From positions 12,335 to 76,334 of the forward strand of contig CALRJN020000012.1 in assembly GCA_943367555.1 (NCBI GenBank): a DNA stretch of 64,000 nucleotides. The letters are read 5' to 3'. This DNA comes from Synechococcus sp. UW140 (GTDB lineage Bacteria > Actinomycetota > Actinomycetes > Actinomycetales > Microbacteriaceae). Every line of letters begins with the position of its first letter. Within the stretch, counting starts at the first letter, position 1. Shown here one piece after another: positions 3,001-55,027 of this stretch. A program made the translations under genes and the position numbers. Under the pieces are notes generated by a model. It ran no database searches and was not told the DNA's origin. It saw only the letters and a program-made list of their open reading frames with translations.

Positions 3001-3386
3001 TCTGTCAGTTCCCGACACTGAACGAGCTGCTGCCCGCCGTGTCCGTGGCGCCGGCCACCTGCACATCCCTCGGCTCGATCATCGTGGATGGGGCTGAGCA
3101 CCTGCTCTACTTCATCGACGGAGCCGCGGTGATCCAGGCGAGCACGCCGACGGCGCCGGGCACGTACACGGTGACCGCGGCATCCGATGATCCGCTCACC
3201 CACACGATCCTCGACAACAAGCCGTTCGTCGTGACGGTGGCCGGACCGTCCATCTGCGCCGACCTGGCGACGCTCGCCCTCACAGGTGCGGGAGGCTCGT
3301 GGTGGCTCGCGGGCTCGACCGCCCTGTCGCTTCTCACGGTCGGTGCCATCATGCTGGTCATCCGACGCCGCGAGAGCGCCCGCTAG
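1..3386 (+). CDS. LAxTG-anchored cell-surface repeat protein, 5' end outside window
   Basis: Track ORF 162..3386 begins at an internal TTG, but the same frame is open back to nt 3, so the gene enters the window truncated. C-terminus DLATLALTGAGG + hydrophobic segment + VIRRRESAR is a sortase sorting signal. The body is alternating Cys-bounded modules. Confidence 0.75.
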   Translation, partial: FQITWSVENRSEKAATVSSTSNSKVIALATSIPAKGFITGTEIVSSAQSRSLRLTVTVAGGSADASASVRSSDFPKCEPPVAKVSLCHASPPDTAAQGWNSQSVDDSSVIDGAHDREHAADIIPSFTYWKQVDGVWTPLTYPGKNLSTPFSGFTGAQILASNCTQSVTATAPTLTPSVCTAPGVVGAASYTIPTTSGVTYEVRVGAGSFGTKVAGTYPVTVPSTITIRAVAGASWVTLSGTTQWSLAYSSPGDCIVSVAPVAPTVTTITACGTSGSIVFATTTGVTYTLTRGTGLAGAWQVTATAQSGYRLTGQTVFSGNLGTRTTCATPAASTFTAAECTGPGTRADGSYMIPSTTGVTYRVSINRGTAADVASGTQFVFTFPTTVTVTAVAQSGYTLTGSTGPWSSTFADPGDCLRVSTPVSPTASPITECGNEGDLVLPTTPGVAYKLTLGDGTSGAWEVTATPATGYRFDGAQSVVFRGDLGEYTDCVTPAAPTFTPAVCTVPGDNGPGQYTIPSTVGVTYWVSIDGGTATATPAGTYDVIGLPATVAITATANTGYTLQKYTGPWEQTLESPGDCLVEVTPLAPSATAITECGTTGEVLLPKTAGVIYTITSGTGLAGAYEVTATAAAGYVITTGAQTVFPLDLGTYTECVTPAAPTFVPAVCTGPGESGSGSYVIPSTVGVTYWVSIDGATPVATGAGTFEVTALPATIEITAMADAGFTLRAYPGPWAETLDDAGDCLVAATPVAPSATVITECGTFGEVRLAKTEGVVYAITSGTGLSGAYEVTATAATGYVIESGAQTVFPLDLGQYTECVTPPAPTFVQAVCTLPGQHDNAQYVIPTTQGVAYGVALDGSTSVATPAGAYDVMTFPTTVTITASAEWGYTLEGDTDGWAVEFGGPGDCDQEVPAATVTFTESTCPELVTEQTIPGSLAIPATTGVEYWVTVNGGAPWMAAPGDDAFDAGDEVLVEAVAATGYRLAKGTTAWSHEFAADPVCQFPTLNELLPAVSVAPATCTSLGSIIVDGAEHLLYFIDGAAVIQASTPTAPGTYTVTAASDDPLTHTILDNKPFVVTVAGPSICADLATLALTGAGGSWWLAGSTALSLLTVGAIMLVIRRRESAR
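489..2726 (+). repeat. in-frame tandem super-repeat (period ~492 nt / 162-164 aa, about 4.5 units) inside surface-protein gene 1
   Basis: Conserved PGDC cysteines recur at aa 201/363/527/691/855 of the track ORF. An identical 44-nt string atcccgagcacggtcggcgtgacctactgggtctcgatcgacgg occurs at 1551..1594 and 2043..2086 (offset 492). Confidence 0.8.
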
Positions 3387-3641
3387 GCGCGATCCTGTCC
3401 GGGAAGGACCCCTGCCGAGGATGTGTCGGTGGGGGTCCTCCCTATGGGGGACAGACAGACCCCCCGAAATGGAGACTGGTCCACCTTAGGGGGGACACCT
3501 AGCCTGAATGAGCATCGTTGTTCGTGGAGCCCGAAATTTCACGAACACACCCGAAACGCGATGCAGTTTCGCTCTGCGCAGCGCACGCCCGAACGTGTGC
3601 CGCTCGTGTGGTGCCGAACTCCCATACCCAGGAGTCGTCCC

Positions 3642-5972
3642 GTGTTCAAGAAGTTGCTTGCTGTTGCCGCCACCCTTCTGCTTGCCGCCGGCATCTCCGT
3701 CATCGCCGTCGCCGCGCCGGCATCCGCTCACACGCCCAGCTACGCCGCGAACTGCGACAACCTGTGGTTCCAGGCGACGGCCTACGAGACGCGTTCGGGC
3801 AACCCGACGCCCAACACGCTCAAGATCGTCATCGATGGCTCGACGGTGCTCGACACGAAGTTCGGCGCCTCGTTCGTCAAGCAGACCTTCAAGTACGACG
3901 GCACGACAGCCCACACCTACTCCATCGTGATCGACGCCGTCGGCGGAACGAACAACACGCAGTACGACAAGACGATCACCGGAGTGACCACCCCCTGCTC
4001 CTACCCGAAGCGCGACATGGCGGTCGATTGCTCGGCCGTCACCGTCAACTGGGGTGCTGCGCTCACCAACGAGCTGCACATCAACATGCGTCTCGAGACC
4101 CCCAAGGGCGAGATCACGGTCAACGCCTACATCGACCTGAACGTCACGGGCGGGTACAAGACCTACGGTCTGCGCATCAACGGATACGACCCGATCCCGC
4201 TCACGGAGCAGCAGGTGAAGTCAGGCAAGCTCGTCTTCGACTACCCGGTCTACGTGAAGAAGGCGGGATACGAGTCCTGGGCCGTCAAGTGGGTGCAGGT
4301 CAACGAGATGCACTTCAACCAGGACGAGAAGGGCGAGTGGATCTACTGCAACTGGTCCACGCCGACGGATGCCGCGGCCGAGGTCACGGTGCTGCCCGCC
4401 TCCTGCACCGCAGGTGAGTCGCTCGTGCTCGGCACGATCACGAACGCCGCGTGGGGCAAGGTCGACGGCGCGTACACGGTCGTCGCCACTGCGCTCACCG
4501 GGCACCTCTTCCCGGCCGGCGATGGCGTCTCGAAGGACGGCACCACGAAGACGTTCACTGGAACGCTCGCGGGCATCCTGAACCCCAATGCCCCGCCGTG
4601 CGCCACCAAGGCCGTGCCGGTCAAGCCGACCGTCGTCACGGTCTCCGAGTGCGGAACCTCCGGCTCGGTCACCCCGGTCGCCGTCACCGGCGTCGACTAC
4701 GCGGTGACGTTCGACAGCGCCAGCGGTGACTACGTCGTGACCGCGACTCCGAAGGCCGGCTACTACTTCGAGGGTGACGCCGACCAGAAGATCACCTTCG
4801 AGGGCAATGCCGGCGCGTACTACGCGTGCTCCGAGAAGCCGGACGCCACGATCGCCTACGGCGAGTGCGTGTATGGGTCCGACGGCAAGGCCGAGCCGCG
4901 CACCGTGCGGATCACCTTCGACAACTCCCGCTCGAACAAGGCCGTGCTGTTCCAGGTTCCCTACTTCCCGGAGTACGACCAGAAGGTCGCCGCGGGTGAC
5001 TCGATCACCTTCGAGGTCGCCAACATGTGGGCGGCGGGCGGCGGGTACAGCGTGACCGCTGGCACGAGCACCTTCGAGCTCACCGTCCCTCCGTGCGACG
5101 AGCCCGTCAAGCCCGAGCCGAAGCAGCGCGTCATCGTCACCGAGCTCATGACCTGCTCGACGAGCGACGTCGAGGTCACCACGACCACGTACACGACCGA
5201 CTGGGTCTTCGACGTCGCCACGACCACCTGGGCCCCGGGTGTCGAGGGTGCTGGCGTTGTCGTGATCACCCACCGGGCGATGACGAGCGACGAGGCGTCC
5301 ACCTACTGCGGCACGAAGGTGGAGACCGACCCGTCGGCATCCACGTGCACCAAGTTCGACCTGAACGCGCCGTACACGAGTTGGATCTACGTCGCCCTCG
5401 ACCCGAAGGTCGTCTACACGATCACCGACGCGAACGCGTCGTCGATCGTCGCGACCTCGGCCTACACGGCGCTCCCGGTGGGCACCTACACCGTGACCGC
5501 TGTCGCGGCGCCCGGCTACGTCCTGCAGCCGAGCGCGTCGAAGTCGTGGACCTTCACGGTCGCGGACACCGATAAGTGCCAGCTCCCGAGCAACGCGCTC
5601 GTCACCCCGATGCTCGCGAGCACGGCCATGACCTGCAAGGCGTCCGGCTCGTACACGCTCGGCGAGCTCACCCCCGGCACGATCGTGTGGACGGTCAACG
5701 GCGTGGTGTCGCCGGCCGGGACCTACAAGGTCACCTCCGCGCAGACGGTGACCCTGGTGGCGACGCCCAAGAACGCATCCGACGGGCTGGACGCCGCGTG
5801 GAAGAGCCCGCAGATCCTGACGTTCGAGGAGTCGGCGGGCGGATGCCAGCTGACCACCCTCGCTCTCACGGGCAGCACCCGCACTCTCGGCTACGCCGCG
5901 ATCGGCACCCTGCTGATCCTCGGCGGAATCGGGTTCTGGATCGTGCGCCGCCGACTTGCCCCCACCGCGTAA
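3642..5972 (+). CDS. LAxTG-anchored cell-surface protein (paralogue 2)
   Basis: In-frame GTG at 3642 preceded by AGGAG (3630..3634) gives Sec signal peptide VFKKLLAVAATLLLAAGISVIAVAAPASA. C-terminus QLTTLALTGSTR + hydrophobic helix + RRRLAPTA. Shares the CGTSGSV...VTATPKAGY module with genes 1 and 3. The track ORF start at 3423 is probably too far upstream. Confidence 0.75.
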   Translation: MFKKLLAVAATLLLAAGISVIAVAAPASAHTPSYAANCDNLWFQATAYETRSGNPTPNTLKIVIDGSTVLDTKFGASFVKQTFKYDGTTAHTYSIVIDAVGGTNNTQYDKTITGVTTPCSYPKRDMAVDCSAVTVNWGAALTNELHINMRLETPKGEITVNAYIDLNVTGGYKTYGLRINGYDPIPLTEQQVKSGKLVFDYPVYVKKAGYESWAVKWVQVNEMHFNQDEKGEWIYCNWSTPTDAAAEVTVLPASCTAGESLVLGTITNAAWGKVDGAYTVVATALTGHLFPAGDGVSKDGTTKTFTGTLAGILNPNAPPCATKAVPVKPTVVTVSECGTSGSVTPVAVTGVDYAVTFDSASGDYVVTATPKAGYYFEGDADQKITFEGNAGAYYACSEKPDATIAYGECVYGSDGKAEPRTVRITFDNSRSNKAVLFQVPYFPEYDQKVAAGDSITFEVANMWAAGGGYSVTAGTSTFELTVPPCDEPVKPEPKQRVIVTELMTCSTSDVEVTTTTYTTDWVFDVATTTWAPGVEGAGVVVITHRAMTSDEASTYCGTKVETDPSASTCTKFDLNAPYTSWIYVALDPKVVYTITDANASSIVATSAYTALPVGTYTVTAVAAPGYVLQPSASKSWTFTVADTDKCQLPSNALVTPMLASTAMTCKASGSYTLGELTPGTIVWTVNGVVSPAGTYKVTSAQTVTLVATPKNASDGLDAAWKSPQILTFEESAGGCQLTTLALTGSTRTLGYAAIGTLLILGGIGFWIVRRRLAPTA

Positions 5973-5985
5973 GAGAGTCCCCTTG

Positions 5986-7038
5986 ATGAGGAAAGTCCTT
6001 GCTGCCCTGATCGCCCTGGCGTTGAGCGTGGGCGGGGTGCTCGCCACCGCTGGCCCAGCATCCGCGACCGATCCCGTCGTAGTGGCCGTGAACCTCACGT
6101 ACATCCAGGGGTGCGCTCCGGATGGCGACAACACGTGGCGGGTGACCAACCCGAGCGCCCTCACCATCCAGGTCTCCTATGCGGCCTACGGCGGGGGCCC
6201 CTCGGGCACGATCAGCGCCCCTCCGGGCCAGTCGTTCTTCAGCACCCCGCGCGCAAGCGAGACGATGATCATCACGTGGGGCGGGGGTGCCACGGGGATC
6301 GTGGCGGGGTCGCGCACGAAGGCGTCCGGATCGGACCTCACCTGCTTGACCCTCGTCGTTCCGGTCGCCCCGACCGTCGTCGCACCACCGTCGTGCGGGA
6401 CCTACGGGTCGGTCACGGCGGCGACCACCACGGGCGTGACCTACGTCGTCGAGTTCGACCAGGTCACCGGGGTCTACACGGTGACGGCGACGCCGAAGGC
6501 CGGATACCGGTTCGACGGCGACGTGCCGCAGATCCTGTTCGAGGGCAACGCGGGCGCGTACACCAAGTGCCCCGACCTGCCCACCCTCGCTGAGGCCAAC
6601 CCGAGCTACTCCTTCACTCAGCCGACCTGCACCCTCCCGGGCACCTACACGGTCGGCGGAACCGTCAACGCGGAGTTCATCGAGTGGCGGATGCAGGGAT
6701 CCAGCACGATCATCCCGCAGGGGACCCCGGTCGCCGTGGGCGGCGCCGTGGCCGTGACCTTGGTCGCGACATCCACCGATCCGATCATGTACACCCTGGT
6801 CGACGCGAACAGCGATCCCTGGGTGAACCCGGTGGTGCTGACGTTCGTCACCCCGACCAACTGCGGGAATCAGGGCGGTCAGGGCGGAAAGGGCGGGCAG
6901 GGCGGCACGGACCTCCAGCTGGAGACGCTCGCCCTGACGGGCGGCCAGACCGCGGGCCCCCTCGGCGTGCTCGGCGTGTTGAGCCTGCTGGCGATCGGCG
7001 GTCTGCTGCTCATCATCCGCCGCCGGATGGAGGCCTGA
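5986..7038 (+). CDS. LAxTG-anchored cell-surface protein (paralogue 3)
   Basis: ATG at 5986 gives signal peptide MRKVLAALIALALSVGGVLATAGPASA. C-terminus LETLALTGGQT + hydrophobic helix + IIRRRMEA. Contains module SCGTYGSVTAATTTGVTYVV...VTATPKAGYRFDG and a GGQ/GGK linker. Confidence 0.75.
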   Translation: MRKVLAALIALALSVGGVLATAGPASATDPVVVAVNLTYIQGCAPDGDNTWRVTNPSALTIQVSYAAYGGGPSGTISAPPGQSFFSTPRASETMIITWGGGATGIVAGSRTKASGSDLTCLTLVVPVAPTVVAPPSCGTYGSVTAATTTGVTYVVEFDQVTGVYTVTATPKAGYRFDGDVPQILFEGNAGAYTKCPDLPTLAEANPSYSFTQPTCTLPGTYTVGGTVNAEFIEWRMQGSSTIIPQGTPVAVGGAVAVTLVATSTDPIMYTLVDANSDPWVNPVVLTFVTPTNCGNQGGQGGKGGQGGTDLQLETLALTGGQTAGPLGVLGVLSLLAIGGLLLIIRRRMEA

Positions 7039-13264: not shown

Positions 13265-14032
13265 ATGGCAGCCAAACCACTCGGCGGCCTCCGCGTGCTC
13301 GTTCCCCGAGGCGGAAAGTGGGGGGACGGCGTCGCGGCGACCCTCCGCAGCTACGGTGCCGTGCCCGTCATCGCGCCGATGATCAACTTCGCGAGCGCCG
13401 ACGACGGTCCGGCCCTCGCGAACGCCCTGCACGAGCTCCAGGACGGCCAGTACGACTGGCTCGTGATCACCAGCGCGACGACCGTCGACGTGTTCATGGG
13501 GCAGGGCGTCGCCATTCCCTCGAGAACGCGAGTCGCCGCCGTGGGCGAGACGACCGCCGCGGCCCTCCAGCTCGCGGGATACCGCGTCGATTTCACCCCG
13601 CAGGGCGACAACACGGCCCGGGGCCTCGTGAAGGAGTGGCCGGATCTCGACGCCGGCCGCGTGCTCGTTCCCCAGTCCGAGGTGGCCGAACCCAATCTCG
13701 TCGCAGGCCTCGCCGCGCTCGGTCTCGACGTACGGTTCATCGCGGCCTACCGCACGGTGGGCGTCCCCGTGTCCGACGCGGTGCGGGCGGACGTCGCATC
13801 CGGCCGGATCGGGGCCATCCTCGTGAGCTCCGGCAGCGTTGCGCGCCAGATCGCGGCCCAGCTCGCCCCGCTCCCCGAGGCCACCGTCGTCGCGTGCATC
13901 GGCCCGCGCACCGCCTTCGACGCCCGCGCGGCGGGACTGGGCGTCGATGTCATCGCGGAGGACCGGTCGGCCGATTCGCTCGTGGCGGCGCTCGTGGAGC
14001 ACGCCCGCCTCGCGCCGCCTAGCGGCGCGTGA
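13265..14032 (+). CDS. hemD: uroporphyrinogen-III synthase
   Basis: 255 aa. LRVLVPRGG...AVPVIAPMINF...DWLVITSATTV...ILVSSGSVARQ resembles the HemD two-lobe pattern. Confidence 0.7.
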   Translation: MAAKPLGGLRVLVPRGGKWGDGVAATLRSYGAVPVIAPMINFASADDGPALANALHELQDGQYDWLVITSATTVDVFMGQGVAIPSRTRVAAVGETTAAALQLAGYRVDFTPQGDNTARGLVKEWPDLDAGRVLVPQSEVAEPNLVAGLAALGLDVRFIAAYRTVGVPVSDAVRADVASGRIGAILVSSGSVARQIAAQLAPLPEATVVACIGPRTAFDARAAGLGVDVIAEDRSADSLVAALVEHARLAPPSGA

Positions 14033-14423
14033 GACGCACGATCGGGGTGCGGCGAGCGATCTTGTCCTGGTAGGCCTGGAACCCGGGCATCACCGAGATC
14101 AGCCGCGGCCAGAGGGACTCGCGCTCGGCGTCCGGGACGACCTCGGCTCGCACCGGGATCGTCTCACTGCCGTACTCGATGACGGTGTCGGGGTGCGCGA
14201 GGAGGTTGTGGTACCAGGCCGGATGCTCGGGGGCCCCGCCCTTCGAGGCCACGATGAGCAGGTCATCCCCGTCGGGCAGGGCCGCGAGCGGGCTCACGCG
14301 TTCGATCCCGGACTTCGCCCCCGTGTGATGAAGGAGCACGAGCGACGTCGCGGCGAACGGCCCGCCGACGCGGCCCGAGTTCGCGCGGAACTCCGCGATG
14401 ATCCGTTCGTTGAAATCGCTCAT
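14019..14423 (-). CDS. nitroreductase-family deazaflavin (F420H2)-dependent oxidoreductase (DUF385)
   Basis: FNERIIAEFRANSGRVGGPF...LLHHTGAKSG...VASKGGAPEHPAWYHNL...R.IPVVRL pattern. Confidence 0.8.
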   Translation of the reverse strand: MSDFNERIIAEFRANSGRVGGPFAATSLVLLHHTGAKSGIERVSPLAALPDGDDLLIVASKGGAPEHPAWYHNLLAHPDTVIEYGSETIPVRAEVVPDAERESLWPRLISVMPGFQAYQDKIARRTPIVRLTRR

Positions 14424-29096: not shown

Positions 29097-29999
29097 CTAC
29101 CCCAGCCCGGCGGGCTCCTGGTGGTCGTCGTCGTCACTGATCGCGCCGGTCACCGGCTTGCGGGACAGGCCGACCGATCCGGCATTCGGGTTGTGCGAGG
29201 TCGCCGCGGCGACCGCAGGACGATCGTCGGCCTTCGTGTAGGCGTGGCGCAGGTGCACCGGCTCGATCTTGCCGTCGCGCTTCTCGACCCGGCGCTTGTA
29301 GGCGAGGTTGAGCGCCTCGACGACGATCGCGAAGGCCATCGGCACGTAGATCAGGGCCTTGTCGATCTTCACGTCGAACCCGTCGGCGATGAGCACGACC
29401 CCGATGAGCACGAGGAAGGCGAGCGCGAGCATCTTCACCGTGGGGTGCTTGTTGACGAAGGCGAAGATGTACTTCGACGAGAAGAGCATGATCGTGAACG
29501 AGAGCACGACCGCGACGATGATCACGAGCAGGTTGTCGACCATGCCCACGGCGGTGATCACGGAGTCGAACGAGAAGACGATGTCGATGAGCAGGATCTG
29601 CACGATCACGGCACCGAAGGTCACCGCCCCGCGGCCCCCGCCGGTGCCGTGGGATTCGGCCCCCTCGAGCTTCTCGTGGATCTCGCGCACGGCCTTGTAG
29701 ATGAGGAACCCGCCACCGAGGATGAGGATGAGGTCGCGCCCGGAGAACCCGAACCCGGCGATGACGAACAGGTCTTCCTTGAGCGAGATGATCCAGCTCG
29801 CGGCGAAGAGCAGCACGATCCGGATGAGCATCGCCAGGGTCAGGCCGAGGTTGCGGGCCTTCGCCTGCTGCTCGACCGGGAGCTTGCTGGCCAGGATCGA
29901 GATGAAGATGACGTTGTCCACCCCGAGCACGATCTCGAGAACGAACAGGGTGAGGAAGGCCACGATCAGTTCGGGCGTGATCTCGAGCGCGAAGTTCAT
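29097..29999 (-). CDS. TerC family integral membrane protein
   Basis: Start cat 29997..29999 inside track ORF 29097..31280. LEIVLGVDNVIFISILA and IDIVFSFDSVITAVG duplicated TerC motifs. Confidence 0.85.
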   Translation of the reverse strand: MNFALEITPELIVAFLTLFVLEIVLGVDNVIFISILASKLPVEQQAKARNLGLTLAMLIRIVLLFAASWIISLKEDLFVIAGFGFSGRDLILILGGGFLIYKAVREIHEKLEGAESHGTGGGRGAVTFGAVIVQILLIDIVFSFDSVITAVGMVDNLLVIIVAVVLSFTIMLFSSKYIFAFVNKHPTVKMLALAFLVLIGVVLIADGFDVKIDKALIYVPMAFAIVVEALNLAYKRRVEKRDGKIEPVHLRHAYTKADDRPAVAAATSHNPNAGSVGLSRKPVTGAISDDDDHQEPAGLG

Positions 30000-30056
30000 G
30001 GGCACAGAATATGGGGTGGACGCCGAGAAACCACCACGAGCCGGGAGAATCGAGCC

Positions 30057-31262
30057 ATGATGTTCTCCCCCTCCGCCGAGCTCGACGCGGCCGACCCGCT
30101 TGCCGCCCGCCGCAACCTGTTCGTGGAGGCGCCCGGGCTCGTCGCCTACCTCGACGGAAACTCGCTCGGCCGACCGCTCGCCGCATCCCTCGATCGCACC
30201 GCCGCCTTCCTGCGTGAGCAGTGGGCGGGCCGCTTGATCCGCGGGTGGGACGAGGGCTGGATGGACCTGCCGCTCACCATCGGCGATGAGCTCGGACGGG
30301 TCGCCCTGGGTGCGGCAGCGGGTCAGGTCGCGATCGGCGACTCGACGACGGTGCTGCTCTACAAGCTGATCCGGGCGGCAGTGGATGCCCGTCCCGGTCG
30401 CACCGAGATCGTCATCGATCGCGACAACTTCCCCACCGACCGCTACCTCGTCGAGGGCATCGCGGCCGACCGCGGACTCACCGTGCAGTGGATCGAGACC
30501 GACCCCGCCGCCGGCGTCACGCCCGAGCTCGTTGCGGCGGCGGTCGGACCGCAGACGGCGCTCACCCTGTTCAGCGCGGTCGCCTACCGCTCGGCGTGGT
30601 TCGCCGACGTCGAGGCGATCACCGCGATCGTGCATGAGGCCGGCGGGCTCACGCTGTGGGACCTCTCGCACTCGGTGGGCTCGGTGCCGACGCCGCTCGA
30701 CGCGTGGGGCGTCGACCTCGCCACCGGCTGCGGCTACAAGTACCTGAACGGCGGGCCGGGCGCTCCCGCGTTCCTCTACGTGCGGCGCGAGCTGCAGTCC
30801 ACGCTGCGGCAGCCGATCCAGGGCTGGCTGGGCTCGGCGACCCCGTTCGAGATGGGGCAGGGCTATGAGCCTGCGGCGGGCATCCGGGGCTGGCTCAGCG
30901 GCACGCCGCCGGTGGTGGCGATGCAGCCCATGCGCGACATGATCGCCCTGATCGACTCCGTGGGGCTGGATGCCGTGCGCGCCAAGTCGGTCGCGCTCAC
31001 CGAGCATGCGATCGCGCTCGTCGATGAGCTGCTGCCCGAGGCGACCCTCTCGAGCCCGCGGGATGCCGCCCGCCGCGGGGGCCACATCACGATCGACCAC
31101 CCGCGGTTCGCCGAGCTCATCCCGCGGCTGTGGGCCGGGGGCGTCATCCCGGACTTCCGTCGCCCGGACGGGATCCGTCTGGGACTCTCGCCCCTGTCGA
31201 CGAGCTTCGCCGAGGTGGAGGCGGGCATCCGGGCGATCCGGGCGGAGTTGGTACCGCACTAG
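30057..31262 (+). CDS. kynU: kynureninase
   Basis: ATG 30057 inside track ORF 29121..31262. YLDGNSLGRP, DLSHSVG, ATGCGYKYLNGGPGAPAF (PLP-Lys region), DFRRPDGIRLG. Confidence 0.85.
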   Translation: MMFSPSAELDAADPLAARRNLFVEAPGLVAYLDGNSLGRPLAASLDRTAAFLREQWAGRLIRGWDEGWMDLPLTIGDELGRVALGAAAGQVAIGDSTTVLLYKLIRAAVDARPGRTEIVIDRDNFPTDRYLVEGIAADRGLTVQWIETDPAAGVTPELVAAAVGPQTALTLFSAVAYRSAWFADVEAITAIVHEAGGLTLWDLSHSVGSVPTPLDAWGVDLATGCGYKYLNGGPGAPAFLYVRRELQSTLRQPIQGWLGSATPFEMGQGYEPAAGIRGWLSGTPPVVAMQPMRDMIALIDSVGLDAVRAKSVALTEHAIALVDELLPEATLSSPRDAARRGGHITIDHPRFAELIPRLWAGGVIPDFRRPDGIRLGLSPLSTSFAEVEAGIRAIRAELVPH

Positions 31263-31286
31263 TACCACTCTTGGTACCATCGCACC

Positions 31287-41629: not shown

Positions 41630-42070
41630 ATGCCCCTGACTGGTGAGTACGAACCGAGCACGTCCGACTGGGCCCGCGAGCAGGCCGAGCTGATCGAAGC
41701 GACGGGGGGTGCTCAGGGCGCTGACTTCCGTGGAATGGGAGTGATCGTGCTCACGACCGTCGGCGCGAAGACCGGCAAACTGCGCAAGACGGCCCTCATG
41801 CGGGTGGAGCACGAAGGGGTCTATGCAGTCGTCGCGTCCCTCGGGGGAGCGCCGAAGCATCCGGCCTGGTACTTCAATGTCGTGGCGCAGCCCCACGTCG
41901 AGCTGCAGGACGGCCCGGTCAAGCGCGACTACCGGGCGCGCGAGGTCACGGGCGCCGAGAAGGCGATCTGGTGGGAGCGCGCGGTCGCGGCGTACCCGCC
42001 CTACGCCGACTACCAGGAGAACACCGAGCGGCAGATCCCGGTGTTCGTGCTGGAGCCGTTCGACGCGTAG
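41630..42070 (+). CDS. nitroreductase-family deazaflavin-dependent oxidoreductase (DUF385), second copy
   Basis: [43 protein letters not shown]...[10 protein letters not shown]. Confidence 0.8.
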
Positions 42071-47385: not shown

Positions 47386-49014
47386 ATGGCTGACCTGTTC
47401 GATGGCTACGGCGCCACTGCCACGAAGAGCACGGCCACGCCCGCGTGGGACGAGATGTTCTCCGAACCGGGCACCGCCCGCAGCTCCTACAAGGAGATCC
47501 ACGCGGCCCTCGCGCAGATGACGCAGGACGAGCTGCGCGGGCGCACCGACGCCCTCGCGAGCTCCTACCTGGCCCAGGGCGTCACGTTCGACTTCGCCGG
47601 CGAGGAGCGCCCCTTCCCGCTGGATGCCGTGCCGCGCGTGATCGACCAGGCCGAGTGGGTCACCGTGGAGGCCGGCATCAAGCAGCGGGTGCGCGCGCTC
47701 GAGGCGTTCCTCGCCGACATCTACGGCGACCAGGCCGCGGTCAAGGACGGCGTCATCCCGGCCAAGCTCGTCACCTCCTCCAGCCACTTCCACCGGGAGG
47801 CCGCGGGCATCGAGCCGGCCAACGGGGTGCGCATCCAGGTGAGCGGCATCGACCTCATCCGCGACGAGGCCGGCACCTGGCGGGTGCTCGAAGACAACGT
47901 GCGCGTGCCGAGCGGCGTGAGCTACGTCATCTCCAACCGCCGCGTCATGGCGCAGACCCTGCCCGAGCTGTTCGTGTCGATGCGGGTGCGTCCGGTGGGC
48001 GACTACCCGCACAAGCTCCTCCAGGCGCTCCGGGCGTCCGCCCCCGGCAACGTCGAGGACCCCACGGTCGTCGTGCTCACCCCCGGCGTCTACAACTCGG
48101 CGTACTTCGAGCACACCCTGCTCGCCCGACTCATGGGCGTCGAGCTCGTCGAGGGCCGCGACCTGTTCTGCTCCGGCGGGCGGGTGTGGATGCGCACGAC
48201 CGCCGGCCCCACGCGCGTCGACGTGATCTACCGGCGGGTCGACGACGAGTTCCTCGATCCGCTGCAGTTCCGCGCCGACTCGATGCTCGGCAGTCCGGGC
48301 CTGCTGCTCGCCGCACGATTGGGCAACGTGACGATCGCCAACGCGGTCGGCAACGGGGTCGCCGACGACAAGCTCGTCTACACCTATCTGCCCGACCTCA
48401 CGAAGTACTACCTCGGCGAGGACCAGCTCCTGCCCAACGTGCAGACCTGGCGGCTCGAAGATCCCGGCGCGCTCGAGGAGGTGCTCGACCGGCTCGCCGA
48501 GCTCGTGGTCAAGCCCGTCGACGGCTCGGGCGGCAAGGGTCTCGTGATCGGACCAGCGGCGTCGAAGGACGAGCTCACCGCCCTCAAGGGGCGCCTCCTG
48601 CGCGACCCCCGCGGCTGGATCGCTCAGCCCGTCGTGCAGCTCTCCACGATCCCCACGCTTGTCGACGAGGGGATGCGCCCGCGGCACGCCGACCTTCGTC
48701 CCTTCGCGGTCAACGACGGCCACGACATCTGGGTGCTCCCCGGCGGACTCACGCGGGTCGCGCTGCCCGAGGGCGAACTCGTCGTCAACAGCTCGCAGGG
48801 CGGCGGCTCGAAGGACACCTGGGTGGTCGGACAGGACCCGCTCACGGTGACGCGCCACAGCATCCAGGGCCTCGTCGCCGGGCAGGCCGCCGCGACGCAG
48901 GCGATCCCGATCATCACCGCCGAGCACCACCTGCAGGACCACGCTCCGCAGGACCGCCCGTTCGGGCACGGGCAGCAGGAGCAGCAGCAGCAAACGAAGG
49001 ACTCGGCATGCTGA
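47386..49014 (+). CDS. circularly permuted type 2 ATP-grasp protein
   Basis: 542 aa. AWDEMF...SYKEIHAAL..., GVTFDF...ERPFPLD.VPRVI...EW, VLEDN.RVPSGVSYV, NAVGNGVADDK, VVKPVDGSGGKG: the CP_ATPgrasp_2 pattern. Confidence 0.85.
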   Translation: MADLFDGYGATATKSTATPAWDEMFSEPGTARSSYKEIHAALAQMTQDELRGRTDALASSYLAQGVTFDFAGEERPFPLDAVPRVIDQAEWVTVEAGIKQRVRALEAFLADIYGDQAAVKDGVIPAKLVTSSSHFHREAAGIEPANGVRIQVSGIDLIRDEAGTWRVLEDNVRVPSGVSYVISNRRVMAQTLPELFVSMRVRPVGDYPHKLLQALRASAPGNVEDPTVVVLTPGVYNSAYFEHTLLARLMGVELVEGRDLFCSGGRVWMRTTAGPTRVDVIYRRVDDEFLDPLQFRADSMLGSPGLLLAARLGNVTIANAVGNGVADDKLVYTYLPDLTKYYLGEDQLLPNVQTWRLEDPGALEEVLDRLAELVVKPVDGSGGKGLVIGPAASKDELTALKGRLLRDPRGWIAQPVVQLSTIPTLVDEGMRPRHADLRPFAVNDGHDIWVLPGGLTRVALPEGELVVNSSQGGGSKDTWVVGQDPLTVTRHSIQGLVAGQAAATQAIPIITAEHHLQDHAPQDRPFGHGQQEQQQQTKDSAC

Positions 49015-49937
49015 GCCGCATCGCCGAGTCGCTCTTCTGGATCGGTCGCTACATCGAGCGCTCCGACGGCACTGCTCGCATCCTCGACGTGCACCTCCAG
49101 CTGCTGCTCGAGGACCCGTGGATCGAGGAGGACCTCGCCTGCCGGTCCCTGCTCAGCGTCATGGGCAGCGAGGCGCCCGAGGATGCGGTGCTCACCCGCC
49201 AGGACATCCTCGCCATCCTCGCCGTGGACCGCAGCGAGCCGGCATCCATCGCCTACTCGCTGGGCGCCGCCCGCGAGAACGCCCGGCGCGCGCGTGAGAT
49301 CGTCTCGACCGAGCTCTGGGAGTGTCTCAACACCACGCGCGCCCGGATGCCCCGCAAGGTGTCGAGCGACAAGGTGCACGAGTTTTTCGGCTGGGTTCGA
49401 GAGCGCTCGGCGCTTGCCGTGGGCATCATCGAGTCGGCGACGAGTCGGGATGAGGCGTGGCAGTTCTTCACCCTCGGCCGCTCCATCGAGCGGGCGGACA
49501 TGACCGCGCGGCTGCTCGCGACCCGCAGCCTCACCGAGGCATCCGGCCCGAGCTGGACGACGATCCTGCGCTCGTGCGGCGCCTACGAGGCCTACTTGCG
49601 CACCTACCGCGGCGTGCCGAGCGCGCGCAACGCGGCGGAGTTCCTGCTGCTCGATCGGCTGTTCCCGCGCAGCATCCTGTTCTCCGTCTCGCGCGCGGAG
49701 CAGTGCATGCGCGACATCGAGCCGCGCGCCGAGCGGGTCGGCGTCTCCGACCCGTCGCAGCGGCTGCTCGGGCAGATCCGCAGCGAGCTGGAGTACCGCC
49801 CGATCGCGGAGATCCTCGAGGACCTGACGATGCACATGGACAACGTGCAGGCCGCCACGAGCGCCGCGTCGGAGGCGATCCGCCAGCGGTACTTCCCCAC
49901 GCAGGTGGCGCCGAGCTGGGTGGGGGAGACCTCGTGA
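49008..49937 (+). CDS. alpha-E domain-containing protein
   Basis: ATG 49008 overlaps the ATP-grasp stop (49012..49014). MLSRIAESLFWIGRYIERSDGTARILDV is the hallmark N-terminus of the alpha-E family. Confidence 0.8.
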   Translation: MLSRIAESLFWIGRYIERSDGTARILDVHLQLLLEDPWIEEDLACRSLLSVMGSEAPEDAVLTRQDILAILAVDRSEPASIAYSLGAARENARRAREIVSTELWECLNTTRARMPRKVSSDKVHEFFGWVRERSALAVGIIESATSRDEAWQFFTLGRSIERADMTARLLATRSLTEASGPSWTTILRSCGAYEAYLRTYRGVPSARNAAEFLLLDRLFPRSILFSVSRAEQCMRDIEPRAERVGVSDPSQRLLGQIRSELEYRPIAEILEDLTMHMDNVQAATSAASEAIRQRYFPTQVAPSWVGETS

Positions 49938-50782: not shown

Positions 50783-50805
50783 GACGTCTGTCTTACACTG
50801 GCGGC

Positions 50806-51036
50806 ATGACCGTCGTGAACTTCCGCACGGATGACGCCGCCGATCGTGCGCTCGAGCAGTTGACGGCGGACGGCACGTCGGTCTCCGCAGCGATCCGCCA
50901 GGCGCTCCTCGACTCGGTGACCCTGCGGGCCCGAGCCCGGATGCGCGAGGAGTCGGCCCGGCTTGTGGATGACGCGGCTGACCTGGCGGAGAGCCGTGCC
51001 ATCCTCGCCCACATGGATGAGCTGCGTGCGCGGTGA
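50806..51036 (+). CDS. type II antitoxin (MazE/RHH-like)
   Basis: 76 aa: MTVVNFRTDDAADRALEQL...AAIRQALLD. Overlaps the downstream PemK/MazF-like gene. Confidence 0.5.
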   Translation: MTVVNFRTDDAADRALEQLTADGTSVSAAIRQALLDSVTLRARARMREESARLVDDAADLAESRAILAHMDELRAR

Positions 51037-51340
51037 CATCGTCGAGTTGCGTGCTCCTCGCGGGGTGCGCGGCCATGAGCAGGCCGGCGCACGCTACGCC
51101 GTGGTACTGCAGTCCGACGATCTGACGCTCTCGACGCTCCTGATCGCTCCGACCTCACGGTCGGCTCGGGCCACCACCTTCCGTCCCACGATCACGGTGG
51201 CGGGGGAGACCACGCAGGTGCTCGTGGAGCAGACCGCCGCGGTCGACCCGACCCGACTGGGTCGCACGGTCGCGGTCGTCACGCGATCCGAGCTCGACGC
51301 GATCGGAGCGGCCCTGCGCCTCGTGCTCGAACTGGACTGA
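51017..51340 (+). CDS. mazF: type II toxin, PemK/MazF family endoribonuclease
   Basis: RGDIVEL..P.GVRGHEQAGARYAVVLQSD....STLLIAPTS......FRP...V.G....VLVEQTAAVDPTRL is the MazF signature. Start is ATG 51017 or GTG 51026. Confidence 0.7.
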   Translation: MSCVRGDIVELRAPRGVRGHEQAGARYAVVLQSDDLTLSTLLIAPTSRSARATTFRPTITVAGETTQVLVEQTAAVDPTRLGRTVAVVTRSELDAIGAALRLVLELD

Positions 51341-51345
51341 TCAGC

Positions 51346-52677
51346 TCAGCTCGTGCGCTGCGCCGTGGACTGCACGATCGCGATCTCCTGGGTCGCAAGC
51401 TCGCGGTCGGCGGTCTCGTCGTGGGTGAAGCGCAGGCGCAGGCCGAAGCGGGAGTCCGGGATGCGGCCGACCCGCATCCCGCGCCGGGAGACGAGCCACG
51501 CGACGGCGAGGCCCGCGGCGACGATGCCGGAAGCCGCACCGATCCCGAGCGCCCAGCGCGGCCCGAGGGTGTTCGCCACGGCTCCGACGATCGGGGCGCC
51601 GATCGGAGTGCCCCCGGCGAACAGCGCGAGGTAGAGGGCCATGACCCGCCCGCGCACGGCCGGGTCGGTGGTGGTCTGCACGTACGCGTTGGCCGTGTTC
51701 ATCATCGTGAGCGAGCTCGCGCCCACGAACACGAGCGCGATGCCGAACACGAGTTGGCTCGGCGCGAGCGCGGCGAACACGCACGCGGCACCGAAGGCCG
51801 CGGCGGCTCCGACGATGAGGCCGACCCGCGCACGCTCCCGTCGGGCCGCGAGCAGCGACCCCGTGAGGGCACCGACCGCGACGACCGACGAGAGCACCCC
51901 GAACTCGGTGGCCCCGCCGCCGAACTCCACGGTGGACATGGTCGAGATGAAGACCGGGAAGTTGAATCCGAAGGTGCCGACGAGGAAGACCATGACGAGC
52001 ACGATGACGATGTCCGGTCGCGAGCGCACGTACCGCAGGCCGTCACGGATCTGTCCCCGGGCTCGCACGAGGCGCGGCGCGGCGACCAGACGGCTCGGCC
52101 GGATGAAGAACAACGACAGCAGAACGGCGGCGAACGAGGCGCCGTTGATGAAGAACACCGGGCCCGCGCCGATCGCCGCGACGAGCACGCCGGCGACCGC
52201 CGGGCCGACCAGGCGTGCGCCCTGGAACGAGATCGAGTTCAGCGCGACCGCGTTGGGAAGGTCCGGGTCGGTGACGAGCTCGGAGACGAAGGCCTGCCGC
52301 ACGGGGGCATCGATCGCCGTGGCGATGCCGAGCAGAAGCGCGAACGCGTAGACCCACCAGAGGGTGGCGAGCCCCGTGACGATGAGGATGCCGAGGCCGA
52401 TCGCGAGCGCGAACTGGGCCGCCTGCGTCCACATCAGCACGCGGCGCCGGTCGAACCGGTCGGCGATGAGTCCGGCGACGGGCATGAGCGCCAGGAGCGG
52501 CCCGAACTGGAGGGCCATGGTGATGCCGAGCGCCGCGGCATCCCCGTCGGTGAGGTCGGTGAGTACGATCCAGTCCTGGGCGGTGCGCTGCATCCACGCC
52601 CCGGTGTTGGAGATGAGGGCGCCCGCGAACCAGAGCCGGTAGTTGGCGACCCGCAAAGACCGGAACATCGCGCTCAC
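51346..52677 (-). CDS. MFS transporter (EntS/MFS_3-like exporter)
   Basis: FRSLRVANYRLWFAGALISNTGAWMQ..AQDWIVL, GLIADRFDRRRVL. Start overlaps the MarR stop by 4 nt. Confidence 0.85.
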   Translation of the reverse strand: MSAMFRSLRVANYRLWFAGALISNTGAWMQRTAQDWIVLTDLTDGDAAALGITMALQFGPLLALMPVAGLIADRFDRRRVLMWTQAAQFALAIGLGILIVTGLATLWWVYAFALLLGIATAIDAPVRQAFVSELVTDPDLPNAVALNSISFQGARLVGPAVAGVLVAAIGAGPVFFINGASFAAVLLSLFFIRPSRLVAAPRLVRARGQIRDGLRYVRSRPDIVIVLVMVFLVGTFGFNFPVFISTMSTVEFGGGATEFGVLSSVVAVGALTGSLLAARRERARVGLIVGAAAAFGAACVFAALAPSQLVFGIALVFVGASSLTMMNTANAYVQTTTDPAVRGRVMALYLALFAGGTPIGAPIVGAVANTLGPRWALGIGAASGIVAAGLAVAWLVSRRGMRVGRIPDSRFGLRLRFTHDETADRELATQEIAIVQSTAQRTS

Positions 52678-53111
52678 GAGTCGGCCAGCCGGTGGAGGAT
52701 CGGGGCCGCCGCATCGAGGGCGGCGCGCTCCTCGGGCGGGAGCGAGGCGAGCTGGCGTGCGAACCAGGCGGCCCGGCGACGCGTGGTTTCGGTGACGATC
52801 GCGCGGCCCGCCTCGGTGAGGCTCACCTGAACCTTGCGGCCGTCATCGGGGGCCGTCTCCCGGGTCACGAGGCCGGAGGCGACCAGCGCGTTGACCGTGC
52901 GGTTCATCGAGGGCGCGGTGATCCGCTCGAAGTCGCTGAGGGCGCCGAGGGTCTGCGGCCCGTGCTTGGCGAGCACGAACAGCGCCGACAACTGCCCGTC
53001 GGTCACATCGCCGTCGACGCGCTCGAGGCGCATCCGGCGGCCCAGGCGCAGCACGGCCATGCGCAGTTGGTCGTCCAGCTCGTCGGTCACAATCGTTAGC
53101 CTAGCAAACAA
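52674..53111 (-). CDS. MarR family transcriptional regulator
   Basis: TTG start. GQLSALFVLAKHGPQTLGALSDFERITAPSMNRTVNALVASGLVTRE wHTH. Confidence 0.8.
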   Translation of the reverse strand: MFARLTIVTDELDDQLRMAVLRLGRRMRLERVDGDVTDGQLSALFVLAKHGPQTLGALSDFERITAPSMNRTVNALVASGLVTRETAPDDGRKVQVSLTEAGRAIVTETTRRRAAWFARQLASLPPEERAALDAAAPILHRLADS

Positions 53112-53142
53112 TTAGGATTGCTAATCAATTGAGGGAAGAAGA

Positions 53143-53172
53143 GGGCGAGGGCCGGCGAACCGGCCCTCGCCC
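53143..53172 (-). terminator. intrinsic terminator of the rhodopsin gene
   Basis: 13-bp perfect stem gggcgagggccgg / ccggccctcgccc with a 4-nt loop, 10 nt past the TAA. On the minus strand it is followed by TCTTCTTCCCTC. Confidence 0.7.
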
Positions 53173-53181
53173 CGTGAGCAG

Positions 53182-54018
53182 TTACTTCTTGGCGGGTGCG
53201 GCCGCGGGCTCGTCGATCGAGTCCTCGATCTTCGCGAACTCCGCGTCGTCGGCGTGCGACTTCATGCGGGCGATCTGGAAGATGATCACGCCGTAGACCG
53301 CCTTGGCCAGGATGTCGGCCACGGAGTAGCCGATCTGCTTGCCCACCCAGGCATCGGCACCCGAGATGTTGAGCAGCGGCAGCATGTAGGCGATCGGGTA
53401 GACGCCCCACGACAGCAGCAGCAGGAAGCGCAGCTGGCTGATCCTCGAGCGCACGCCCGCGGACTGGAGGTCGAGCGACTTCGTGAGCTGCACGAAGAGC
53501 ACGTACAGGATGTACAGGAACGGCAGGGTCGACAGGATGCCGAAGATCGTTCGCACGGTGTTGTCGCCGCTGATCTCGCCCGGGTAGCCGAGCGCGATCA
53601 TGAGCGCCGCGGCGGGAACGAGGCGCATGAGGAGGCCACGCTGGATGTGCTTGGCGAGCGCGAGCACGGCAACGAGCTCGACGAGCAGCAGCGGCACGGT
53701 GAGGAACCAGTCCACGTAGCGGTAGCCCTCGTTGAACGACTGGCCGACGGCTTGCGTGTACGTTCCGACACCACCGACGGCGTCCGTCACGAACGCCTCG
53801 CGGAACGAGTCGAAGATCCGGAAGTAGTGGTAGGCGGCGATCCCGCAGACGATCGCGGCGATCGCGATGGCCTGACGGTAGCGCGGCAGGACGCGCTGCA
53901 TCCCGACCACGAGGAACAACGCAGTGAACAACTGCGAGGCGATCACGAGGGACAGGAAGTTGTAGACGGTGTCGTACTGAAGTTGACTCAGGGAGTCGGG
54001 AATCATCTGATCCTCCAT
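53182..54018 (-). CDS. microbial (type 1) rhodopsin, DTE-motif proton-pump type (actinorhodopsin/xanthorhodopsin-like)
   Basis: 7-TM, 278-aa protein. Helix C is RYVDWFLTVPLLLVE (D103, T107, E114). Helix G is SVADILAKAVYG (D235, Schiff-base K239, codon 53302..53304 verified). H64 sits in AAYHYF and Leu111 at the spectral-tuning position. Start may be M5 (54006). Confidence 0.85.
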   Translation of the reverse strand: MEDQMIPDSLSQLQYDTVYNFLSLVIASQLFTALFLVVGMQRVLPRYRQAIAIAAIVCGIAAYHYFRIFDSFREAFVTDAVGGVGTYTQAVGQSFNEGYRYVDWFLTVPLLLVELVAVLALAKHIQRGLLMRLVPAAALMIALGYPGEISGDNTVRTIFGILSTLPFLYILYVLFVQLTKSLDLQSAGVRSRISQLRFLLLLSWGVYPIAYMLPLLNISGADAWVGKQIGYSVADILAKAVYGVIIFQIARMKSHADDAEFAKIEDSIDEPAAAPAKK

Positions 54019-54157
54019 TGGAGATGAGTTGAACAGGCCGCCGATGCCGTTGCCGGGGGCAGGGGCGTCGCCACGCTACGCCCGAAGTCAAGCCCCCCGA
54101 CAGGGCCACGACGATTCAGGTGGCACCCCCTACGATGAAGGGGAGCGAGGAGGCTCG

Positions 54158-55027
54158 ATGCCGAAAAAGACCGTCACCCGCAACGATGCGACCTTCACCG
54201 ATCCGCAGGGCGTGCGCATCCACTGGTACTCCTGGCGTGCCCCCAAGCCGAAGGCGGTGATCCAGCTCGCCCACGGTCTCGGCGATCACGCGCTGCGGTA
54301 CGAGCAGACCGCGAACGACCTCGTCGCGGCCGGATACTCCGTCTACGCGAACGACCACCGCGGTCACGGCGCGACCGGGATGGAGCAGTGGGGCGGTGAC
54401 ACCTCGAAGCTCGGCAAGCTCGGCCCCGGCGGCTTCCGGGCGACGGTCGCGGACGAGCTCCAGTTCACCGGCATCGTCAAGGCCGAGAACCCGGGCGTGC
54501 CGATCGTGCTGCTCGGGCACTCGTGGGGTTCGATCATCGCGCAGGAGATCATCAACACCCACTCCGCCGACTACGACGCGGCCGTGCTCACCGGCACCGC
54601 CTTCCGCACGTTCGGCGACATGAACGGCGGTGACCTCAACGCGAAGCACAAGCACCTCGGCACCACCGGCAACGAGTGGCTCAGCCGCGACGTCTCCGTG
54701 CACACCGCGTTCCGGGATGACCCGCTCACCTTCACCGCGACGGCGCTCAAGCTCTTCGGGCTCGCCGACGGGTTGCGCCTGCTCGGCACGCCCGCGAAGA
54801 ACCTCGCCCGCGACATCCCGCTGCTGATGATGATCGGCAGCGAGGACTCGCTCGGCGGGGAGAAGAGCATCGAGAAGCTCGCCTCGGCGTATGTGACCAA
54901 GTCGGGGCTCGACGACGTCAAGGCGATCGTCTACCCGGGCGCCCGCCACGAGGTGTTCAACGAGACCAACCGCGACGAGGTCATCGCTGATCTCGTCGCG
55001 TGGTTGGGCGACCGCCTGCCCGCATGA
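54158..55027 (+). CDS. alpha/beta hydrolase (lysophospholipase / monoacylglycerol lipase-like)
   Basis: ATG 54158 after GAGCGAGGAGG. HGLGDHALRY, NDHRGHG, nucleophile elbow GHSWGS, C-terminal ARHEVFNE. Confidence 0.8.
   Translation: MPKKTVTRNDATFTDPQGVRIHWYSWRAPKPKAVIQLAHGLGDHALRYEQTANDLVAAGYSVYANDHRGHGATGMEQWGGDTSKLGKLGPGGFRATVADELQFTGIVKAENPGVPIVLLGHSWGSIIAQEIINTHSADYDAAVLTGTAFRTFGDMNGGDLNAKHKHLGTTGNEWLSRDVSVHTAFRDDPLTFTATALKLFGLADGLRLLGTPAKNLARDIPLLMMIGSEDSLGGEKSIEKLASAYVTKSGLDDVKAIVYPGARHEVFNETNRDEVIADLVAWLGDRLPA

Follow-up and report, generated by a model that had tools for sequence, protein, structure and literature searches.

Does a rhodopsin gene with no recognizable retinal-synthesis gene nearby encode a light-driven pump, and where would its retinal come from? 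The question is raised by a 64-kb stretch of contig CALRJN020000012.1 (assembly GCA_943367555.1, Microbacteriaceae), here called the window, which carries a rhodopsin gene on its minus strand (Table 1). Taken as a whole, the evidence makes it very likely that this gene is native and monocistronic and that its product is a 274-amino-acid (aa) seven-helix type-1 rhodopsin of the actinorhodopsin (ActR) branch, a pump by homology. A first-pass annotation, made from the letters and a list of open reading frames (ORFs), had already proposed a rhodopsin of the proteorhodopsin (PR), xanthorhodopsin (XR) or ActR pump type with a DTE motif, and the Pfam and PDB matches and the aligned motifs reported below bear this out. 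Residue numbers throughout are those of a longer, 278-aa reading of the ORF from the first ATG (53182..54018, minus strand), so that Lys239 corresponds to Lys235 in the 274-aa protein.

Family assignment

A Pfam scan matched the product to PF01036 (Bac_rhodopsin) with E=1.4e-38 and 133.1 bits, against a cut-off of 24.6. The match spans protein residues 24-250 and profile positions 9-221 of 224, the core of seven transmembrane helices, and a 19-residue hydropathy scan likewise found seven hydrophobic segments. No NCBIfam model matched the protein. The PDB search returned 166 distinct rhodopsin sequences, led by 9HFK (1e-80), Gloeobacter rhodopsin (GR; 6NWD, 8e-76) and psXR (9WFA, 3e-73), and followed by Kin4B8 (7YTB, 6e-61), XR (3DDL, 1e-59) and Thermus rhodopsin (TR; 5AZD, 2e-54). 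Weaker matches, from 1e-29 to 1e-14, were obtained for proteorhodopsins, Na+ and Cl- pumps, CryoRhodopsins (CryoR) and bacteriorhodopsin (BR). Sequence identity is 58% to 9HFK, 54% to GR, 53% to psXR, 49% to Kin4B8 and 48% to XR, and ~31-33% to the proteorhodopsin GPR and to BR, two reference sequences that were entered by hand and aligned by BLASTP.

In a neighbor-joining (NJ) distance tree the window rhodopsin and its syntenic relatives nest inside a high-G+C actinobacterial clade. The characterized reference nearest to this clade is 9HFK, and the XR/Kin4B8 and GR/psXR groups come next. Identity, PDB E-values (1e-80 to 1e-55 compared with 1e-22 or weaker) and the tree thus agree that XR, GR and ActR are closer than PR or BR. 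Judged by these matches and by its aligned residues, the gene is an intact actinorhodopsin-branch member of the xanthorhodopsin/Gloeobacter-rhodopsin family.

The family is large, with >7,000 homologs at E<1e-20. Named homologs at 73-78% identity come from Cryobacterium, Subtercola, Salinibacterium, Rhodoglobus, Clavibacter, Leifsonia, Herbiconiux and Marisediminicola, and more distant ones from Arthrobacter, Nesterenkonia, Mycolicibacterium, Rhodococcus, Pseudonocardia and Nocardioides. The exact 274-aa protein is already recorded in Logan assemblies and on an 83,120-bp NCBI contig, and the 90%-identity clusters to which proteins of the window belong include entries from Rhodoglobus aureus, Rhodoglobus sp. 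and Salinibacterium sp.

Functional residues and proposed pump cycle

The helices align with those of GR without gaps, so that residue numbering transfers directly. The alignments with GR and GPR place the proton acceptor and donor, the Schiff-base lysine, the helix-B histidine and Asp235 at the positions expected of a proton pump (Table 1), which confirms the assignment of the lysine and the carboxylates made from the letters. H64, R100, D103, T107, L111, E114 and D235 are invariant in all 202 homologs of the actinobacterial clade, K239 is kept in 201 of them and G160 in 200.

From homology with characterized relatives, we infer outward light-driven proton pumping. All-trans retinal would be bound to Lys239 as a protonated Schiff base, as in characterized members of the family, and would be isomerized by green light, with an expected maximum at about 530-565 nm. 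The Schiff-base proton would then pass to Asp103, paired with His64 and stabilized by Arg100 and Asp235, and Glu114, at the cytoplasmic side, would supply the Schiff base with a new proton. The predicted net result is the movement of one proton outward per photon, which would supplement the proton-motive force of the heterotrophic host, a Microbacteriaceae member resembling Rhodoglobus and Salinibacterium.

Green absorption is predicted because a leucine occupies the position of PR residue 105, where the first-pass annotation had also placed it, and because characterized actinorhodopsins have maxima at 534-565 nm. These include the actinorhodopsin of Rhodoluna lacicola (RlActR), a pentameric outward H+ pump that absorbs at 534 nm (PMC11790970), the outward H+ pump of Nanopelagicus at 544 nm (PMC12393363), and ActR-13023, an outward H+ pump at 565 nm in which Gly145 corresponds to XR G156 (PMC8113403).

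A possible carotenoid antenna

Gly160, at the start of helix E, had been tentatively equated in the first pass with the glycine that opens the antenna site of XR and GR. Alignments with GR, XR and BR establish this correspondence; the alignment with GPR is ambiguous in this region. The glycine may leave the lateral opening that XR, GR and Kin4B8 use for carotenoid docking, and a second chromophore is possible. Besides G156, the ring pocket of XR consists of L148, F157, T160, M208 and M211. Two of these residues are identical in the window rhodopsin (T164 for XR T160 and M212 for XR M208) and two are conservatively substituted (I161 for F157 and L215 for M211). The equivalent of L148 depends on the alignment, being V155 in one and falling in another column in a second. 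Antenna binding by the window rhodopsin is speculative. The Gly160 pocket might also take up a native C50 carotenoid for this purpose; to our knowledge, such an antenna has been shown for no rhodopsin.

Chromophore supply

Several observations weigh against the reading of this gene as a functional pump, with or without an antenna. The 64-kb window (62 genes annotated) contains no blh (PF15461) and no crtE, crtB, crtI or crtY, which leaves chromophore supply unproven. The closest characterized relative is only 58% identical. A consensus scan recognized no sigma-70 promoter. The carotenoid pocket of XR is only partly identical, with G156, T160 and M208 the same but F157 replaced by I and M211 by L. 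ActR-13023, which has the same glycine, failed to bind canthaxanthin (PMC8113403), so the glycine alone is insufficient for an antenna.

The lack of blh/brp and crtEBIY genes in the window had been noted in the first pass and was upheld by the Pfam scan and by a profile search for Blh. When the neighbors of rhodopsin genes in related loci were clustered, one cluster, represented in 23 loci, proved to be Blh (PF15461, E=2e-32). A hidden Markov model built from these 23 proteins had no significant hit in the window translated in all six frames (best E=0.08, 7 bits). There is also no SQS_PSY/phytoene synthase, polyprenyl synthase or lycopene cyclase among the 62 genes. The only carotenoid-like signal in the window comes from a FAD-dependent oxidoreductase, which scored 56.8 bits for CrtO (cut-off 1000), mostly through its N-terminal dinucleotide-binding fold, and 37 bits for crtI_fam (cut-off 238). 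With scores far below the family cut-offs, we rejected this gene as a CrtI or CrtO candidate.

A rhodopsin without a linked blh is the majority state among related stretches. Blh occurs in 25 of 88, always within ~3 kb of the rhodopsin, and the stretches that bear it are mostly from Mycobacteriales, Pseudonocardia and Nocardioides, with few from Microbacteriaceae. Neither the same-strain contig (L001) nor the syntenic relatives (L082-L088) have it. In published surveys, most related Microbacteriaceae likewise have no blh at all, and opsins without blh are well documented in the family (PMC12422013, PMC7734400). Aurantimicrobium minutum has neither blh nor diox1, yet it contains retinal and pumps protons (PMC7734400). 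In Marisediminicola antarctica, the opsin adjoins a lycopene cyclase gene and blh (PMC6669644).

Retinal could be supplied by a distant blh, by an unknown pathway or by the environment. One refinement of the pump explanation, which concerns chromophore supply only, holds that no canonical blh exists anywhere in the genome and that retinal is scavenged from neighboring organisms or made by an unidentified enzyme, for example by the asymmetric cleavage of a C50 carotenoid proposed for A. minutum. We regard this tentatively as a serious possibility, a little below the balance of probability. It fits the absence of Blh from the window, from the same-strain contig and from the syntenic relatives, the close linkage of blh to rhodopsin in the minority of stretches that have it, and the precedent of A. 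minutum. A protein search with a Subtercola Blh points the same way, with no Rhodoglobus or Salinibacterium among the top 120 matches; the named Microbacteriaceae matches were from Subtercola, Frondihabitans, Marisediminicola, Amnibacterium and Curtobacterium. This result is suggestive only, since most entries are unnamed (~3/4 of the database proteins) and the search, limited by shared words, cannot show absence. Against the refinement, the window covers 64 kb of a roughly 3-Mb genome, and many Actinobacteria hold blh with a crt cluster elsewhere in the genome.

A stronger claim, which we consider possible but rather unlikely, is that the lineage has none of the known retinal-forming enzymes, even though its intact and strongly constrained pump gene has stayed in one chromosomal slot while the protein diverged by at least 20%. 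If true, this would point either to a retinal pathway of high-G+C Microbacteriaceae that is still undiscovered, such as C50 carotenoid cleavage, or to obligate cross-feeding of retinal in cold terrestrial or freshwater communities.

The lack of a retinal gene in the window would also suit a protein whose main role is independent of retinal, for instance a pentameric phospholipid scramblase or a structural membrane protein, with pumping secondary or absent in vivo. The actinorhodopsin of Nanopelagicus scrambles lipids without retinal or light, and this activity has been offered as an explanation for genomes with an opsin and no blh (PMC12393363). We consider such a main role improbable here; lipid scrambling next to pumping is conceivable. 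The conservation of K239, D103, E114, H64, D235 and R100, (near-)invariant in the 202 homologs, would be unexpected if pumping were dispensable and argues that pumping is under selection; the same study reports no sequence motif required for scrambling (PMC12393363).

Translation start and transcription unit

The first-pass annotation had suggested that translation begins at the second ATG (54006), 4 nt after a GGAGGA motif, and three lines of evidence support this start. The product in databases has 274 aa, and an exact look-up found the 278-aa form absent from the record. Most homologs start with MIPD. In relatives, the upstream ATG is not conserved, being unusable because of an in-frame TAG in two Cryobacterium loci (L013 and L017) and replaced by ACG in another locus (L069), while an alignment of upstream regions reveals a conserved GGAG 7-9 nt before the ATG or GTG start. 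The MED codons of the longer ORF are thus the ribosome-binding site. The divergent intergenic region upstream presumably holds the promoters of both flanking genes, and the ~60 nt of it proximal to the rhodopsin are identical in the closest syntenic relative (L082, 91% protein identity).

Downstream of the stop codon lies a terminator-like hairpin, which the first pass had described as a clean intrinsic terminator at 53143..53172. The hairpin itself is exact, with an inverted repeat of 13 nt that is 100% complementary (53143-53155 / 53160-53172) and a predicted fold of -33.6 kcal/mol (z=-5.46; 0 of 200 shuffled sequences fold as well). The tail UCUUCUUCCCUC is a weak U tract interrupted by C, and a consensus terminator scan reported no site. 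In almost every relative, the stop codon is directly followed by a hairpin of similar strength whose sequence is unrelated, in some cases with clear U runs. The hairpins here and in the relatives support a monocistronic unit, insulated from the co-directional MarR and major facilitator superfamily (MFS) genes downstream.

Composition and chromosomal context

The window has a G+C content of 69.9%. At 64.5% (z=-2.76; other genes, 70.4 +/- 2.2%), the rhodopsin gene is poorer in G+C than any other of the 56 genes that have >=100 codons, and the hand counts of 60-67% in the first pass were about right. A difference from the flanking DNA, which the first pass had left open, turned out to reflect nothing unusual. 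Only the first and second codon positions show the deficit (GC2 0.379, z=-2.25), owing to the Leu, Ile, Phe, Tyr and Val in which this membrane protein is rich, whereas the G+C content of third positions (GC3 0.935, z=+0.48) and the codon adaptation index (CAI; 0.76, z=+0.19, with the other genes of the window as reference) are typical.

The 62 genes of the window were called with the help of GC3 frame analysis and annotated by Pfam or through the annotation of the same-strain contig. Among reference genomes, none of 80 rhodopsin loci shares the neighbors found here. A partial exception is L010, where a MarR-MFS pair lies beside the rhodopsin gene but is convergent with it, while the pair in the window is co-directional. 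Metagenomic relatives do share the context; their rhodopsins are 91% (L082), 82% (L083-85) and 80% (L086-88) identical. In all of them (L082-L088) a divergent Hydrolase_4 alpha/beta-hydrolase gene flanks the rhodopsin on one side, and in those whose contigs reach far enough downstream (L083-L088) a convergent operon of transglutaminase, Alpha-E and circularly-permuted-ATP-grasp genes lies on the other. Between the transglutaminase gene and the rhodopsin, the window carries an additional block made up of a toxin-antitoxin pair and the MarR-MFS genes. We interpret this block as a later local insertion because the slot lacks it in L083-L088. The first pass had called the neighbors atypical for a rhodopsin. 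This holds in comparison with the reference genomes, but the slot is common to relatives at 80-91% identity, and it is the MarR-MFS genes that were inserted.

The ordinary GC3 and CAI, together with the slot shared with close relatives, argue that the gene is native and not recently transferred, and on these grounds we regard it as vertically inherited in a fixed chromosomal slot. A recently transferred rhodopsin island, with low G+C and unrelated neighbors as its footprints, is very improbable. It could draw on the lowest G+C in the window, on a context unlike that of 79 of 80 reference-genome loci and on the adjoining toxin-antitoxin pair and MarR-MFS genes. However, a G+C deficit limited to codon positions 1 and 2 is expected of a very hydrophobic protein, relatives at 80-91% protein identity hold the rhodopsin in the same slot, and the inserted DNA is the toxin-antitoxin/MarR-MFS block, of which the rhodopsin is not part. 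Searches of the window found no tRNA genes, Rfam families, integrase or repeat boundaries; it thus has neither integration hallmarks nor riboswitches. A sensory function, or the pumping of Na+, of Cl- or of H+ inward, is the least credible alternative, for although cold-habitat Microbacteriaceae also carry non-canonical CryoRhodopsins (PMC12227055) and Subtercola vilae has three rhodopsin genes (PMC6518244), the motif is DTE and not NDQ, NTQ or the RRxxxDK of CryoRhodopsins, no transducer gene is adjacent, similarity to Na+ and Cl- pumps is weak, and CryoR structures match at 1e-14 to 3e-17 compared with 1e-80 for 9HFK.

Table 1. Features of the rhodopsin locus and residues of its product (278-aa numbering).
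Feature	Position	Strand	Remarks
Rhodopsin coding sequence, 274 aa	53182..54006	minus	ATG 54006 to TAA 53184-53182; ORF list, Pfam, PDB, database records
Shine-Dalgarno GGAGGA	54011..54016	minus	4 nt before ATG 54006; inside MED (ATGGAGGAT) of longer ORF
Divergent intergenic region, 151 bp	54007..54157		Between rhodopsin and alpha/beta-hydrolase gene
Terminator-like hairpin	53142..53173	minus	14-bp G+C-rich stem, UUCG loop, then tail; starts 11 nt past stop
His64, helix B			Predicted to pair with acceptor Asp; GR H87, GPR H75; BR has Met
Asp103, putative primary proton acceptor (counterion), helix C	GAC 53710..53712	minus	GR D121, GPR D97, BR D85
Thr107			GR T125, GPR T101 (alignment)
Leu111			GPR L105 (BLASTP)
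Glu114, putative cytoplasmic proton donor	GAG 53677..53679	minus	GR E132, GPR E108, BR D96
Gly160, fenestration glycine, start of helix E	GGC 53539..53541	minus	GR G178, XR G156, Kin4B8 Gly, BR W138
Asp235			GR D253, GPR D227 (alignment)
Lys239, predicted Schiff-base lysine, helix G	AAG 53302..53304	minus	GR K257, XR Lys, GPR K231, BR K216
FAD-dependent oxidoreductase, 522 aa	19130-20698	minus	Rejected as CrtI or CrtO
ATP-grasp gene	47386-49014		
Alpha-E gene	49008-49937		
Transglutaminase gene	49934-50782		
Extra block	50783-53111		Between transglutaminase gene and rhodopsin; absent from slot in L083-L088
MazF/PemK-type toxin gene	50969-51340	plus	Short partner ORF upstream; pair within 50.8-51.3 kb
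MFS exporter	51346-52677	minus	
MarR/Rv0880-like regulator	52674-53111	minus	Probable start GTG 53090
Hydrolase_4 alpha/beta-hydrolase gene	54158-55027	plus	

Regulatory genes near rhodopsins in related loci

In 28 of 77 related loci, a MarR-family gene of ~160 aa lies divergently and directly upstream of the rhodopsin gene, at a distance of about 100-600 bp; the window has no such gene. The loci concerned include L013, L017 and L069 and come from Cryobacterium, Rhodoglobus, Arthrobacter, Nesterenkonia and Microbacterium, among others. The rhodopsin-MarR intergenic regions of Cryobacterium contain a palindrome-like sequence (TTACTGAATAAGTAA / TTACTGATTCAGTAA). Together, the divergent MarR and the palindrome could represent an undescribed regulator and its operator, dedicated to actinobacterial rhodopsin genes. 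The MarR gene in the window was rejected as a dedicated rhodopsin regulator, as it is only ~29% identical to the divergent MarR conserved at other loci, forms a pair with an MFS exporter and is absent from the slot in L083-L088. Genes for GAF-ANTAR proteins (RNA-binding antiterminators) lie 2-3 genes from the rhodopsin in four loci, for example L050 (8289-9047), which may be coincidence.

Other genes in the window

At 3-7038 (plus strand), three large ORFs follow one another, the first (1127 aa) open at the edge of the window and the others 791 and 360 aa long. They have high GC3; in Pfam they gave only a marginal match of InlB B-repeat type and one to Oxidored_q6 that stayed below threshold. 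A 723-aa call at 29097-31268 (minus strand) has a TerC domain only at residues 439-629, and its GC3 (0.82) and codon adaptation (0.59) are lower than those of any other call in the window. It is either an overlong call, a gene with an unusual extension at the N-terminus or one with a segment of foreign composition, and Rfam identified no yybP-ykoY or other riboswitch there. Two paralogous genes for F420H2-dependent quinone reductases (PF04075), at 14019-14423 (minus) and 41735-42070 (plus), imply F420 metabolism in the host, and one of them lies inside the block that is syntenic with L083-L088.

Comparison with known systems

The best structural match, 9HFK, is very probably RlActR, because its residue numbers (acceptor D92, lysine K234) and its count of five chains agree with the protein described in PMC11790970; a text search found no paper for the PDB entry itself. 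RlActR comes from the same family, Microbacteriaceae, and shares with the window rhodopsin the DTE motif, the histidine, the lysine and the fenestration glycine. Its host also lacks blh (PMC12422013, PMC7734400). The two proteins differ at 42% of residues, and in the window rhodopsin the B-C loop (VTDAVGGVGTYTQAVGQS) is longer and the F-G loop shorter. Their hosts differ as well, R. lacicola being a streamlined, low-G+C planktonic Luna bacterium and the window host being Rhodoglobus-like with high G+C (70%).

More closely related are the so-called xanthorhodopsin genes of high-G+C Microbacteriaceae, which belong to the same subclade, have 73-78% identity and are identical to the window rhodopsin at all motif residues. 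They occur in Cryobacterium, Subtercola, Clavibacter, Marisediminicola, Salinibacterium and Rhodoglobus, carry the NCBI labels bacteriorhodopsin or xanthorhodopsin, and have been noted in genome papers (PMC6669644, PMC6518244, PMC5009969). Unlike these, the window has neither the lycopene cyclase and blh neighbors of Marisediminicola nor the divergent MarR of the 28 loci. This subclade appears to be without a biochemically characterized member.

GR matches the window rhodopsin at D121, T125, E132, H87, G178, D253 and K257, and is an outward H+ pump able to bind keto-carotenoids according to the work cited in PMC11790970. It is cyanobacterial and differs in several pocket residues, such as T179, where the window rhodopsin has I161. 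XR from Salinibacter and Kin4B8 share with the window rhodopsin 48-49% identity, the DTE motif and the glycine at XR position 156; XR T160 and M208 are conserved and F157 and M211 are not. GPR represents the same mechanism class, with D97, T101, E108, H75, L105, D227 and K231 all identical in the window rhodopsin, but belongs to a separate clade, with about 31% identity.

The family, its actinobacterial subclade and the pattern of opsins without blh are all already known from the literature, and homologs are routinely annotated. Set against these systems, the locus is of modest value as a clean example of rhodopsin phototrophy that high-G+C Microbacteriaceae of cold habitats have kept vertically with no retinal gene linked to it, and it bears on a question raised in that literature, the chromophore source of rhodopsin bacteria that lack blh.

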